A DNA stretch of 64,000 bases, taken from the NCBI GenBank assembly GCA_965232835.1, contig OZ247426.1, positions 229,671 to 293,670 of the forward strand, read 5' to 3'. Of this stretch, positions 3,507 to 53,124 are shown piece after piece (the stretch's first letter is position 1; each line of letters begins with the position of its first letter). A model generated the notes under the pieces. The model ran no database searches and was not told where the DNA came from. It saw only the letters and a list, made by a program, of their open reading frames with translations. This DNA comes from Dehalococcoidia bacterium (GTDB taxonomy: Bacteria > Chloroflexota > Dehalococcoidia > Lucifugimonadales > UBA3495). A program made the position numbers and the translations under genes.

Positions 3507-4217
3507 ATGAACACGACCCCTGAGCGTCGAACTGCCATGTACCACTCCCAGCTGGAAATGGGGGCCGTAATGGCCGACGCCGATGGCTGGCAGCTGCCGC
3601 TGCATTACGGGGATGCCGGTCGGGAATTGGTCTGGCTGCGAGAGACCGTGGGGGTCTCGGACGTGAGTCCCATAGGAAAGGTCAGGGTTGTAGGGAAAGA
3701 CGCCGCCTCGGCTGTCGCGTCGCTGGTTGCTGCTGCTACAGAGCAGCAAATTGGTACAGTCGCTGAGGGCGATTCTACCCTGGAGCGGGGTGGCAAATTG
3801 CTTTCGGTCCGGCTGGCGGGTGATGAGTTCCTGGTCCTGACCCCGGCCGGTGTGGGCGCGGCGGCCGCTGGCGCCCTGGGGTCCGTGGACGCTGCCTGCG
3901 CTTACGCCATCGACATAACCTCCGGGCTATGTGGCGTGGCCATCGTGGGGCCGCGCACACGGGAGTTGATGAGCCGCATCACCGATGTGAACACGTCGCC
4001 TGCTGCCCTCCCGGACCTGCACTGCGTCCAATCACGCTTCGCCGATGTGCAGGGCCTGCTGCTGCGCCGAGACGTCAACGGCATTGCCATGTACCAGCTC
4101 TACGCCGGGCGGGAATTCGGCGAATACCTCTGGGAGGCGCCGGTTGAAGTTGCCAGGGAACTCGGCGGGGGCCCTGCAGGCACCCAAGCCCTCCTGGGCC
4201 TTCGGGAAACGGATTAA
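3507..4217 (+). CDS. soxG: Sarcosine oxidase gamma-like / aminomethyltransferase-fold subunit
   Basis: GWQLPLHYG, VSDVSPIGKVRV GcvT-like N-terminal fold; operon position. Confidence 0.75.
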   Translation: MNTTPERRTAMYHSQLEMGAVMADADGWQLPLHYGDAGRELVWLRETVGVSDVSPIGKVRVVGKDAASAVASLVAAATEQQIGTVAEGDSTLERGGKLLSVRLAGDEFLVLTPAGVGAAAAGALGSVDAACAYAIDITSGLCGVAIVGPRTRELMSRITDVNTSPAALPDLHCVQSRFADVQGLLLRRDVNGIAMYQLYAGREFGEYLWEAPVEVARELGGGPAGTQALLGLRETD

Positions 4218-4681
4218 ACGCCGAGAACGCAGAGGGCGCAGAGATTTCTTGGGGTTAAGTCGAATTTGACAAGCCAGGCAAAATTAGACGCAATTTCGCG
4301 TTCGATCATTGGAGCTGCAATCGAAGTCCATAAGGCCTTGGGGCCAGGTCTCTTGGAAGCTGCTTATGAATCGTGTCTGGCGTTTGAGCTAGCCGAGCGA
4401 GGCCATTTTGTGGAAAGACAAAAGGCGGTTCCCGTCGAGTACAAGTCGGTTCGTGTGGAGGCAGGGTTTCGTATTGATCTATTAGTCGATGAGAAGATCA
4501 TAGTCGAACTTAAAGCCGTAGAATCCATTTTGCCGGTGCATAGGGCTCAGCTAATGACCTATCTTAGACTGACCGGATTGAGAGTTGGCCTCCTTTTGAA
4601 CTTCAATGTCAATATACTCAAACAGGGCTTGCAAAGGGTTGTTAACCAATTCTGAAAATCTCGGCGCTCTCGGCGTTTAAT
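4213..4681. mobile_element. Putative small mobile cassette: GxxExxY gene bounded by terminal inverted repeats built from 9-bp units
   Basis: ATTAAACGCCGAGA (4213-4226) is the exact reverse complement of TCTCGGCGTTTAAT (4668-4681). Inner units CGC(C/A)GAGNN occur 3 times on the left and twice, inverted, on the right. Confidence 0.55.
4266..4655 (+). CDS. GxxExxY protein (PD-(D/E)XK nuclease-like fold)
   Basis: LGPGLLEAAY motif, RIDLLVDEKIIVELKAVE, QLMTYLRLTGLRVGLLLNF; visibly AT-richer than the flanking genes; TTG start. Confidence 0.93.
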   Translation: MTSQAKLDAISRSIIGAAIEVHKALGPGLLEAAYESCLAFELAERGHFVERQKAVPVEYKSVRVEAGFRIDLLVDEKIIVELKAVESILPVHRAQLMTYLRLTGLRVGLLLNFNVNILKQGLQRVVNQF

Positions 4682-4698
4682 TCCTTCTGGAGATTGTA

Positions 4699-5916
4699 TT
4701 GTTTCAGATTTTTCGGAAGAACCGCATGTGGCAGTCCCGCCCTCTTAAGGACCACTACCGCGTCGTTATCATTGGCGGCGGGGTGCATGGGCTTTCCACG
4801 GCCTATTACCTGACCAAGCTGGGCGTCAAGGACATCGCAGTCCTCGACAGGGGATACCTTGGCGGCGGGGCCAGCGCACGCACCACGGCCATCATTCGCT
4901 CCAATTACCTCACCCTCGAGGGCATCCCCTTCTTTGACGAAAGCGTGAAGCTCTACGAGGGCCTGGCGAAAGAGCTGAACTTCAACATGCTTTTCAACCA
5001 GATGGGGCGGCTGGACCTAGGCCACACCGATGCCGCCCTGTACGCGCTCCGCATGCGCACCGAATTCAACCGCATACTGGGCGTTGACAGCCGGATGGTC
5101 GGGCCTCAGGAAATCAAGCAGCTTGTCCCGTCCATGAGCCTGCGGGAGGGACTGCCATTCCCCATCCTGGGAGCCCTGTACCATCCTCCCTGCGGCGTGA
5201 TACGGCATGACGCTGTGGTCTGGGGGTTCGGGCGCGCCGCAGACCGTGGTGGCGCTGAGTTGCATCCGTTCACCGAGGTAACCGCCATCGACACTGCCAA
5301 CGGACGGGTCAGCGGCGTGGAGACAAGCAGAGGCTTCGTGGGTGCTGACGTGGTGCTGAGCGCCACCGCCGGCTGGAGCAGCGAAGTGGCCCGGCTCGCC
5401 GGTGTAGAGCTGCCCATAACGACCCACCCGCTGCAGGCCATGGTTACCGAGCCGCTGAAACCATTCCTTGACAAGACGATCTCATCGGCGAACCTGCACG
5501 CCTACGTCTACCAGACCGACCGCGGCGAGGTCGTAATCGGCGGCGGGGTTGACCCATACCCGTCATACAGCATGCGTTCGGCGCTGCTGCCCATGGAGCA
5601 GCTGGCAGGGCACGCCCTGGAGATGTTCCCCTGCCTGTCCCAGGTGAAGGTGTTGCGGCAGTGGGCCGGGCTCTGCGATATGACCCCTGACTACGCGCCG
5701 ATAATGGGCCCGGTGGACGGGCTGGACGGGTTCATAGTCTCCTGCGGCTGGGGCAGTTGGGGATTCAAAGCAGCACCCGCAGCCGGCAAAAACATCGCTC
5801 AGTTGATCGCGACGGGAGAGACCCCCGACCTGATCAAACCCTTCCGGCTGTCCCGGTTCCGTGAGGGCAAGCTGGTCAACGAACGCGCCGCCGCCCCCGC
5901 CGCCGCTATCCACTGA
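4699..5916 (+). CDS. soxB: Sarcosine oxidase beta / N-methylglutamate dehydrogenase FAD subunit
   Basis: IIGGGVHGLSTAYYL, RTTAIIRSNY, GVIRHDAVVWG, QWAGLCDMTPDYAPIMG. Confidence 0.9.
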   Translation: MFQIFRKNRMWQSRPLKDHYRVVIIGGGVHGLSTAYYLTKLGVKDIAVLDRGYLGGGASARTTAIIRSNYLTLEGIPFFDESVKLYEGLAKELNFNMLFNQMGRLDLGHTDAALYALRMRTEFNRILGVDSRMVGPQEIKQLVPSMSLREGLPFPILGALYHPPCGVIRHDAVVWGFGRAADRGGAELHPFTEVTAIDTANGRVSGVETSRGFVGADVVLSATAGWSSEVARLAGVELPITTHPLQAMVTEPLKPFLDKTISSANLHAYVYQTDRGEVVIGGGVDPYPSYSMRSALLPMEQLAGHALEMFPCLSQVKVLRQWAGLCDMTPDYAPIMGPVDGLDGFIVSCGWGSWGFKAAPAAGKNIAQLIATGETPDLIKPFRLSRFREGKLVNERAAAPAAAIH

Positions 5917-51624: not shown

Positions 51625-53124
51625 ATGTACAAGGTGGACGTATATCTGCGGGTTCGCCGGGCGGTGATGGTGGAGGGGATGAGCGTGCGGGAAGCGGCGA
51701 GGACCTTCGGCCTGCACAGGGACACGGTGCGCAAGATGCTGGAGTATGCAGTGCCTCCGGGCTATCGTCGACAAGTGCCGCCGCGGCGTCCCAAGGTCTC
51801 ACCCTACACCGGCGTCATTGACCGCATTGTAGAGGACGACCATCAGGTCCCCAAGAAGCAGCGCCACACCGCCAAGTGCATCTACGAGCGGCTCAGAGAC
51901 GAATACGGCTACGACGGTGGATACACCATCGTCAAGGACGACGTTCGGGAGCACCCTCGCCAGACTCGGGAGATGTTTGTTCCGCTGTCCCACCCACCGG
52001 GGCAGGCCCAGTGCGACTTTGGGGAAGCCGTGGCGGTAATCGGCGGCGTACAGCAGAAGGCACACTGCTTCGTATTGGACCTGCCTCACAGCGACGGCTG
52101 CTACGTCAAGGCCTATCCCGCCGAGACCACCGAGGCGTTCCTGGACGGGCACGTAGCAGCGTTCGCCTTTCTGGGCGGAGTGCCCCAGAGCATCCTCTAC
52201 GACAATACCAGGCTAGCTGTTGCCCGGATCCTGGGCGACGGCCGACGCCAGCGCACGAGAGCATTCACCGAGTTGCAGTCCCACTACCTGTTCGAGGACC
52301 GTTTCGGCCGCCCCGGGAAGGGCAACGACAAAGGCAAGGTGGAGGGCCTTGTGGGGTACGTGCGCCGCAACTTTCTGGTGCCCGTGCCGTCCTTCGAAAG
52401 CTTCGATGCGCTGAATGCCCACCTGGAACAACGCTGCCTGGAGCGGATGGACGCCCAGCTCAGGGGACATGCGGAGACCATCGCTCAGAGGATGGAGCGG
52501 GACCTGGACGCCCTGTTGCCGTTGCCGCCGGTGGCCTATGATGCCTGCGACAAGCAGGCTGGCCGGGTGAGTTCGCTGTCCTTGGTCAGGTACAGGACCA
52601 ACGACTACTCGGTGCCGGTGGCCTACGGGCACCGCGACGTACTGGTGAGGGGCTACGTCGACGCAGTGGTGATCAGCTGCGGAACCGAGATCATCGCCAG
52701 GCATCCCGGATCATACGAGCGCGACGACTTCGTCTACGACCCCATCCACTACCTGCCGCTCTTGGAGCGTAAGCCGGGCGCCCTGGACCAGGCCGCACCG
52801 CTGCAGGGCTGGGGACTCCCCGATGAGTTCGGCACGCTGCGGCGTCTGCTGGAGTCCCGAATGGGACGGCGGGGTAAGCGGGAGTACGTGCAGGTGCTCA
52901 GGCTGCTGGAGACCTTCTCCCAGCAGGAGGTGCACGCAGCGGTGAAAGATGCCATCCACCTGGGGGCGCTCAGCTTCGATGCGGTGAGGCACCTGGTCTT
53001 GTGCCGGCTGGAGGGACGGCCCCCCAGGCTGGACTTGGAGCTCTATCCCTACCTGCCCCGGGTCCGGGTCAGCACCACGGCCGCCGGGGACTATATGACC
53101 CTGCTGTCTGGGAGAGCGGCATGA
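51625..53124 (+). CDS. istA: IS21 transposase
   Basis: QAQCDFG, LYDNT, GNDKGKVEG; open reading frame intact. Confidence 0.93.
   Translation: MYKVDVYLRVRRAVMVEGMSVREAARTFGLHRDTVRKMLEYAVPPGYRRQVPPRRPKVSPYTGVIDRIVEDDHQVPKKQRHTAKCIYERLRDEYGYDGGYTIVKDDVREHPRQTREMFVPLSHPPGQAQCDFGEAVAVIGGVQQKAHCFVLDLPHSDGCYVKAYPAETTEAFLDGHVAAFAFLGGVPQSILYDNTRLAVARILGDGRRQRTRAFTELQSHYLFEDRFGRPGKGNDKGKVEGLVGYVRRNFLVPVPSFESFDALNAHLEQRCLERMDAQLRGHAETIAQRMERDLDALLPLPPVAYDACDKQAGRVSSLSLVRYRTNDYSVPVAYGHRDVLVRGYVDAVVISCGTEIIARHPGSYERDDFVYDPIHYLPLLERKPGALDQAAPLQGWGLPDEFGTLRRLLESRMGRRGKREYVQVLRLLETFSQQEVHAAVKDAIHLGALSFDAVRHLVLCRLEGRPPRLDLELYPYLPRVRVSTTAAGDYMTLLSGRAA

Follow-up and report, generated by a model that had tools for sequence, protein, structure and literature searches.

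What is a small nuclease gene doing between two inverted repeats in the middle of a catabolic operon? We addressed this question for a stretch of 64,000 nucleotides from a Dehalococcoidia bacterium (assembly GCA_965232835.1, contig OZ247426.1, positions 229,671 to 293,670), hereafter the window, in which a gene of the GxxExxY family lies between soxG and soxB of a sarcosine-oxidase-like operon. The answer that we favor, with a probability of about 0.55, is that this gene and its flanking repeats form a horizontally exchanged cassette with homing-like spread. It would be a partnership of the kind known from repetitive extragenic palindromic (REP) sequences with their REP-associated tyrosine transposases (RAYT) and from the Ssn-NTS systems, with another fold and another repeat design.

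A nuclease gene between inverted repeats

Read from the sequence, window positions 4213-4681 make up a discrete cassette of 469 bp that consists of a left arm, a GxxExxY gene, and a right arm. Its outer ends are a perfect 14-nt inverted repeat, ATTAAACGCCGAGA at 4213-4226 and the exact complement TCTCGGCGTTTAAT at 4668-4681. Within the left arm, three units of 9 bp span positions 4220-4246 (CGCCGAGAA, CGCAGAGGG, and CGCAGAGAT), and the right arm carries two inverted CTCGGCG units (4660-4666 and 4669-4675). TTAA occurs at both ends, at 4214-4217 and 4677-4680. A repeat search extended the arms to 4208-4247 and 4656-4686, with a complementarity of 85-86%. The cassette has a GC content of 47.5% (soxG 65%, soxB 63%), and its sole open reading frame is a 129-aa nuclease gene. 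All the sequence details on which an earlier note on this DNA had built its proposal of a minimal mobile element are present, namely the 14-bp repeat, the three left and two right units, the soxG TAA within the left repeat, the TTAA at both ends, and the AT-richer gene.

Shuffled sequences yielded a perfect inverted repeat of at least 14 nt at the same spacing in 2 of 2000 cases. Recurrence of the same architecture at the sox site in 14 other genomes of the genus far outweighs this test as evidence. The insertion immediately follows the soxG stop codon and leaves the reading frames of the operon intact. This stop codon is TAA at 13 of 15 filled sites and a mix of TAG, TAA, and TGA at empty ones. 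Scans of positions 4000-4900 for promoters and terminators gave nothing relevant, leaving the cassette without a promoter or terminator of its own, and an Rfam scan of the same segment gave no match.

History of the insertion site

The gene soxB served as the host marker in all comparisons, and its orthologues (85-98% amino acid identity) were found in 30 genomes of the same genus. Among these, the soxG-soxB junction was filled in 15, empty in 13, and occupied by decayed remnants in two. Filled sites had spacers of 397-501 nt and always held a GxxExxY cassette in the orientation of the operon. Meanwhile, empty sites measured 0-21 nt and held only the soxB ribosome-binding site. The two remnants, one a relic coding for LINFN (locus L018) and the other a left arm (L019), are cases of decay in place. 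Outside the family, 13 genomes of the same order were compared; the junction was empty in all but one, G040, which has a filled site with CCACAGAG arms. Since the junction is empty in 12 of these 13 genomes and in 13 of the 30 from the genus, the insertion is the derived state, and the filled site of G040 places such occupation in more than one family. The earlier note had looked to relatives for an empty site, and these junctions supply it.

On a host tree built from soxB plus 1.5 kb of downstream DNA, filled and empty states were scattered, and well-supported branches force at least six changes of state. In four sister pairs with good support, one member is filled and the other empty (L009/L012, L027/L023, L006/L007, and L021/L014), and 12 of the 37 genus genomes have no GxxExxY gene at all. 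All that the empty-site spacers have in common is a GCCGAGGA-like Shine-Dalgarno sequence, and some of them resemble one unit (GCCGAGGA). As GCCGAGGA is also the soxB ribosome-binding site, the empty sites display no clear cassette footprint.

Cassette and flank histories

The closest relative of the window's genome (G004, locus L005) holds a different cassette at the same place, in flanks that are about 91-93% identical to the window. Identity between the two sequences is 94-98% as far as GGATTAAAC and returns to that level from GTTT(A/T)A on. Inside the cassette, identity drops to about 60% at the nucleotide level and 62% at the protein level, and the G004 type has CACAGAG units. The break points coincide exactly with the outer ends of the arms. 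In genomes that carry the G004-type cassette (L038), the flanks differ right up to the TAA, which argues for an exchange from arm to arm and not for ordinary recombination in the flanks. Synonymous divergence (dS) between the window and G004 was 0.16 for soxG and 0.31 for soxB, and it was saturated for the cassette.

The opposite pattern was found in two metagenome contigs. Here, the cassette genes were 97.5% (L034) and 97.0% (L035) identical to that of the window, whereas the flanks were 91.3% and 82.9% identical (Fisher p = 1.5e-5 and 1e-15, respectively). In L034, dS relative to the window was 0.044 for the cassette and 0.21 for soxG; in L035, it was 0.059 for the cassette and 0.75 for soxB, with 117 of 121 third codon positions identical in the cassette and 264 of 405 in soxB. 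The highly similar tract stops within the arms.

Approximately unbiased (AU) tests rejected the host-congruent cassette groupings L004+L005 (p = 3e-73) and L004+L005+L021 (p = 1e-36), these groups having been named after the data were seen. Third-position divergence of soxB and of the cassette was uncorrelated across 91 pairs of genus cassettes (Spearman rho -0.03). All 14 cassette genes have a GC content of 46-54% in hosts of 62-65%. The nearest database relatives of each cassette type (76-95% amino acid identity) lie mostly at the sox site. Relatives of type iii with 74-76% identity and the same CACAGAG arms occur at unrelated loci in other Chloroflexota, between a DNA glycosylase and a short-chain dehydrogenase gene, and upstream of a methylmalonyl-CoA mutase gene.

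These sequence comparisons indicate that the cassette has been gained, lost, and swapped from arm to arm as one unit, between lineages and at the same site, and that its history is decoupled from that of the flanks. The picture of a discrete unit that spares the operon, as drawn in the earlier note, is borne out by the arm-limited swap with G004, the AU tests, the dS contrasts, and the uncorrelated divergence.

Two further cassettes (L063, G017:C21:323-3664, and L060, G003:C2:414842-418183) differ in what surrounds them. The left flank of one holds a 5′ fragment of another GxxExxY gene, and the right flank of the other holds a second right arm as well as a duplicated 3′ gene fragment. Both flanks appear to preserve relics of earlier cassettes that occupied the same site.

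Structure of the arms

The left arm was aligned to the reverse complement of the right arm in 14 orthologous cassettes. The unit motif is CRCNGAG, 7 nt long and repeated every 9 nt, and the cassette ends are TTAAAC...GTTTAA. While the arms are about 81% complementary overall, the match between them is concentrated in the 7-nt cores (258 of 287 positions, 90%) and is low in the 2-4-nt spacers (18 of 52, 35%; Fisher p = 8e-17). Transition mismatches on the sense strand showed no wobble bias, with 26 G.T and 24 A.C. Spacers that are not complementary and the lack of a wobble bias characterize the arms as a mirrored array of phased motifs and not as a helix. In their layout, the arms resemble arrays of putative binding units.

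The termini, TTAAAC...GTTTAA or GTCTGAA...TTCAGAC, belong to the inverted repeat. A variant terminus changes symmetrically on both sides (TTCAAC...GTTGAA), and none of the empty sites contains TTAA. The earlier note was thus right that TTAA lies at both ends, but these observations rule it out as a piggyBac-like target duplication and make it part of the inverted repeat.

Each of the five protein subgroups of the genus is associated with a unit of its own. These units are CRCNGAG, ACAGGATG (arranged as hairpins), GTCTGAATCAGGATT, GTCTGAACTGTGATT, and GACGCAAAG.

Other copies and gene-less arrays

The host genome (4.74 Mb in a single contig, 61.5% GC) contains three GxxExxY genes, all of which lie between inverted repeats of short phased units, each with a different unit sequence. 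The copy at 3418127 has the arms GTCTGAATCAGGATTT...AAATCCTGATTCAGAC. Another, at C1:4167765-4168103 (L002), lies between two complete hairpins of ACAGGAT units; its reading frame is interrupted by a TAA (VSN*LG), which makes it a probable pseudogene. Its intact orthologues in three relatives likewise lie between two full ACAGGAT-unit hairpins, not inside one. The expectation of the earlier note that other copies would be flanked in the same way holds, in every copy examined, for the inverted arrays of short phased units; the unit sequence itself differs from subfamily to subfamily.

Hairpins made of the same unit families also occupy many intergenic spacers of the host genome without any gene. 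Censuses with strict patterns counted 118 tandem pairs of CRCNGAG and 81 of CAGGAT, in 67 clusters each, where about 7 and 0.4 matches, respectively, were expected by chance and controls with reversed patterns gave 0-8. Across the 37 genus genomes, the median number of CRCNGAG tandem units per genome was 115 in the 18 genomes with a CRCNGAG-armed gene and 33 in the other 19 (Mann-Whitney p = 5e-7). The same held within the four filled/empty sister pairs (98/33, 147/13, 81/17, and 252/55). For CAGGAT units, the nine genomes with cognate genes had a median of 50 and the remaining 28 a median of 9 (p = 0.003). Gene-less arrays are therefore enriched where the cognate gene is present. Meanwhile, no Y1/RAYT transposase (PF01797) was detected in the 37 genomes, in a search whose positive controls matched 6 of 14 control genomes.

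The turnover of these arrays was followed in a 280-kb syntenic block (C1:4117195-4395719 in the window's genome, G000, and C6 in G004; loci L069-L089; about 94% identity). Some arrays were conserved; in one of these, the two genomes differ by one 9-nt unit, through gain or loss. At other sites, one array had been replaced by another with sharp edges (CGCCGAG and CACAGAG at 4132355; CAGGAT and TGTGAT at 4129178 and 4209418). The arms of two arrays were chimeric (4362746 and 4249579), and one left arm was tandemly triplicated (4206536). Clean presence or absence of gene-less arrays between the two genomes yielded no target consensus, since most variable sites hold a different element and not an empty site. 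A classical miniature inverted-repeat transposable element (MITE) at position 4225106 of G000, with the terminal inverted repeat CAGGGTCATTCGATT, has an 8-bp target duplication, TGGCTGGG. As MITEs display clear target duplications, this comparison would have revealed such duplications at the arrays.

Intergenic spacers were hypervariable between G000 and G004. An additional palindromic repeat family, CCCTCTCCC...GGGAGAGGGTTAGGGTGAGGG, was also observed.

The GxxExxY protein

The cassette protein matched PF13366 (2e-43, 147.8 bits, cut-off 22) and TIGR04256 (2e-44, 150.5 bits, cut-off 35). Its GLLEAAY motif comprises residues 28-34, and the predicted catalytic residues are E31, D71, E81, and K83. 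In 58 homologues, E31, D71, and K83 were invariant and E81 was nearly so (≥90%). An AlphaFold2 model (pLDDT 94, pTM 0.88) had its best structural matches to Cas4 SSO0001 (TM 0.56), lambda exonuclease, LHK-Exo, and the nuclease domain of AddAB. A sequence search of the PDB gave no homologue. Pfam returned only PDDEXK_3 and one weak Cas4 match, and no GIY-YIG domain (cd10448) was found; PADLOC returned weak Cas4 matches only, with no defense-system context. From its sequence and the model, the protein is predicted to be a minimal Cas4/RecB-like PD-(D/E)XK nuclease. The ratio dN/dS was 0.04-0.12 between cassettes of one type, a signature of purifying selection which indicates that the protein is kept functional.

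PF13366/TIGR04256 is a very large family that spans phyla and has no assigned function. We found no paper describing this arrangement for PF13366, and the only papers found that mention the family list its function as unknown.

Proposed explanation and alternatives

We propose that the nuclease binds the phased units as sequence-specific sites and not as a base-paired stem. Cleavage would fall at the arrays or beside them, with single-stranded or branched DNA as the probable substrate, as for enzymes of the Cas4 and lambda exonuclease type. Host repair of these cuts from another copy, either incoming DNA of a relative or another array in the genome, might then replace the segment between the termini. 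By this route the cassette could spread to cognate sites in a homing-like manner, and gene-less arrays would be seeded or maintained. The step proposed in the earlier note, self-mobilization by the GxxExxY nuclease, is an inference. Two traits typical of homing elements are present at the locus: the insertion site is fixed and has empty alleles, and the history of the element is decoupled from that of the flanks.

Several findings weigh against this explanation. The cassette encodes no recombinase or transposase, and a PD-(D/E)XK nuclease is not known to rejoin DNA by itself, which leaves this step to host repair. No target-site duplication of the cassette was found. The evidence of movement consists of evolutionary comparison, with no movement event caught, and the host tree behind part of it rests on a single locus. 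Contigs L034 (ctg19053l) and L035 (scaffold_1907) end within a few bases of the cassette arms, so they might be assembly chimeras; their ends suggest that the arms break metagenome assemblies through repeats or strain polymorphism. In a tree of 130 proteins, the sox-site cassettes of the genus formed one weakly supported group (SH-aLRT 84), and their closest database relatives (86-95% identical) all lie at the sox site, which fits exchange between cognate sites better than free transposition. G007, a genome that lacks GxxExxY genes, has 76 tandem units of CAGGAT. We also asked whether the arrays across the genome share the unit subtype of the resident cassette; there was no clear match, and G000 is a counterexample, with 65% CAC-type arrays though its own cassette is of the CGC type.

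Chief among the alternatives is a domesticated host system similar to Ssn, in which GxxExxY would cut single-stranded DNA (ssDNA), for instance transforming DNA, beside arrays and in this way shape recombination. The cassette would then not be selfish, its cuts would make the arms into recombination break points, and the gene-less arrays would be control sites maintained by the host. This alternative shares the central biochemical prediction of the homing-like explanation. The architecture matches that of the published SsnA-NTS systems, and the fold is like that of Cas4 and lambda exonuclease, enzymes acting on ssDNA or DNA ends. Tracts of high and low identity ending in or at the arms would be expected as well, but a swap of cassette types that are about 60% identical cannot arise by recombination within the cassette. 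Similarly, the strong purifying selection and the concentration of the closest relatives at one locus agree with a host function, yet the gene is dispensable, being absent from 12 of the 37 genus genomes, and the cassette sits in an unrelated catabolic operon at 47% GC against 64%, where it was repeatedly inserted, lost, and replaced. We regard a host system of this kind as unlikely, though it deserves to be taken seriously.

A further alternative regards the gene as a passenger. The arrays would be REP- or MITE-like and moved by another enzyme or by slippage, and GxxExxY would be captured cargo, such as a toxin-like or defense gene. Gene-less arrays do far outnumber the genes and persist in G007 with no gene at all, and intergenic spacers are generally hypervariable, with several unrelated repeat families and MITEs. 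However, the unit sequence specific to each subfamily holds across unrelated loci and taxa, and array abundance tracks the cognate gene type by type, as each of the four sister pairs also shows. The lack of a Y1/RAYT transposase in any genus genome and the weak, Cas4-only PADLOC matches outside any defense context also argue against it, and we consider it improbable.

The arms could instead pair in the polycistronic sox messenger RNA as a processing or stabilizing stem, like the intervening sequences of ribosomal RNA. Consistent with this, the cassette is always co-oriented with the operon, lacks its own promoter and terminator, and has arms of high overall complementarity. Yet the 35% match of the spacers means that pairing itself is not conserved, G.U-compatible mismatches are not in excess over A.C (26 vs 24), Rfam gave no match, and both the co-variation of protein and unit and the horizontal turnover would be left unexplained. 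We therefore reject this idea as very improbable. Lastly, all cassettes might go back to one ancient insertion, with vertical descent, fast evolution, and many losses but no horizontal movement. This idea deserves hardly any credence: the weak grouping of the sox-site proteins and the fast evolution of soxG itself (55-91% amino acid identity) agree with it, but it is contradicted by the AU tests, by the dS contrast with G004 (where the proteins differ by 38%), and by cassette divergence being uncorrelated with host divergence, and strong purifying selection excludes fast neutral decay.

A more far-reaching version of the homing-like explanation is that GxxExxY cassettes constitute an undescribed class of minimal mobile element. 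In such a class, a nuclease of about 125 aa would be the only protein; it would read the units and cut at the termini, host repair would drive arm-to-arm replacement at cognate sites, and the hundreds of gene-less arrays in the intergenic spacers of these genomes would be seeded. We put this forward tentatively, as possible rather than probable. If true, it would give a function to what is among the largest nuclease families still lacking one. The locus offers a natural experiment, with 30 close genomes in which the cassette of the same operon is present, absent, decayed, or replaced. Our findings yield a testable hypothesis, in which the substrate of the nuclease is its own 7-nt units and cleavage is expected at the array termini. 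If these enzymes are sequence-programmable like the Ssn nucleases, natural pairs of protein and unit might be a source of new site-specific nucleases.

Features of the locus

The genes of the region are arranged in the order end of a glnA-like (glutamine-synthetase-like) gene, soxD, soxA, soxG-like gene, cassette, soxB, amidase, and amidohydrolase (Table 1). All sox scores fell under the NCBIfam equivalog cut-offs, which places the operon in the sarcosine-oxidase family while its substrate may not be sarcosine. For comparison with the native spacer in the table, the empty-site spacer of L017 is ACGCTGAGGATTGTA. The unit pattern matched the window at one other place, CGCCGAGACCACCGAG near 52119 (window 52040-52280); this lies inside an apparent coding sequence and was dismissed as a chance match, not an array.

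Table 1 Features of the soxG-soxB junction, in window positions
Feature	Positions	Strand	Remarks
soxG-like gene (gamma subunit, GCV_T fold)	3507..4217	+	PF01571 4e-28, PF04268 3e-6, TIGR01375 6e-12 (below cut-off)
Stop codon TAA of soxG-like gene	4215-4217	+	Inside left terminus of cassette
Left arm	4213..4247	+	Terminal ATTAAAC, then units CGCCGAG-AA, CGCAGAG-GG, CGCAGAG-AT
GxxExxY / PDDEXK_3 gene, 129 aa, TTG start	4266..4655	+	PF13366, TIGR04256
Right arm	4656..4681	+	AAAT, CTCGGCG twice, terminal GTTTAAT; starts directly after the TGA stop of the gene
Native soxG-soxB spacer with soxB Shine-Dalgarno TCCTTCTGGAGATTGTA	4682..4698	+	Homologous to empty-site spacers of 9-21 nt
soxB (beta subunit)	4699..5916	+	TIGR01373 2.5e-130

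Comparison with known systems

The Ssn-NTS/SRM systems consist of GIY-YIG nucleases acting on ssDNA whose genes are flanked by cognate hairpin repeats (Chenal et al. 2025, PMC11893778). SsnA-NTS includes hundreds of gene-less repeats, and 81% of the repeat-rich genomes carry the gene (PMC11893778). The GxxExxY cassettes resemble these systems in that a short gene for a single-domain nuclease stands between copies of its own repeat, that the genome contains tens to hundreds of further repeats without a gene, whose abundance is associated with presence of the nuclease gene, and that nuclease and repeat co-evolve, with a variant for each homologue. In contrast, the fold is of the PD-(D/E)XK Cas4/RecB type instead of GIY-YIG, with an activity that is predicted only, and mirrored arrays of two to four phased 7-nt units take the place of a single hairpin of 20-50 nt. 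Moreover, the present comparisons show the gene and its arms to be gained, lost, and swapped together inside an operon.

The second parallel is with the REP/REPIN-RAYT systems, also called REPtrons (PMC3733652, bioRxiv 10.1101/2022.05.22.493013). Both have a gene flanked by inverted copies of the associated repeat and many non-autonomous, gene-less doublets; in both, repeats are intergenic, follow stop codons, and cause no target duplication. However, the Y1/HUH transposase that defines those systems was not found in the 37 genus genomes. RAYTs are mostly single-copy and vertically inherited, whereas the cassette is horizontally exchanged and often absent, and its repeat is built of unit arrays. 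The cassette lacks the defining enzyme of the Ssn-NTS systems and that of the REP-RAYT systems alike.

Insertion sequences and MITEs also have terminal inverted repeats with internal units that resemble binding sites, as well as shorter gene-less derivatives. Unlike them, the cassette has neither a transposase (DDE, HUH, serine, or tyrosine) nor a target-site duplication, and it measures only 469 bp.

Free-standing homing endonuclease genes share with the cassette a fixed site in a conserved locus, presence-absence polymorphism, a foreign base composition, a history decoupled from the flanks, and cycles of gain, decay, and loss. They differ in that the cassette is not in an intron or intein and has long ends made of repeat arrays; the same ends stand without a gene at roughly 100 other sites, and occupied sites can be re-occupied by another type. 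Based on these comparisons, the cassette behaves like a free-standing homing endonuclease gene, but one with long array ends that also exist alone. To what is known of such nuclease-repeat partnerships, this locus adds evolutionary evidence of movement for GxxExxY cassettes.

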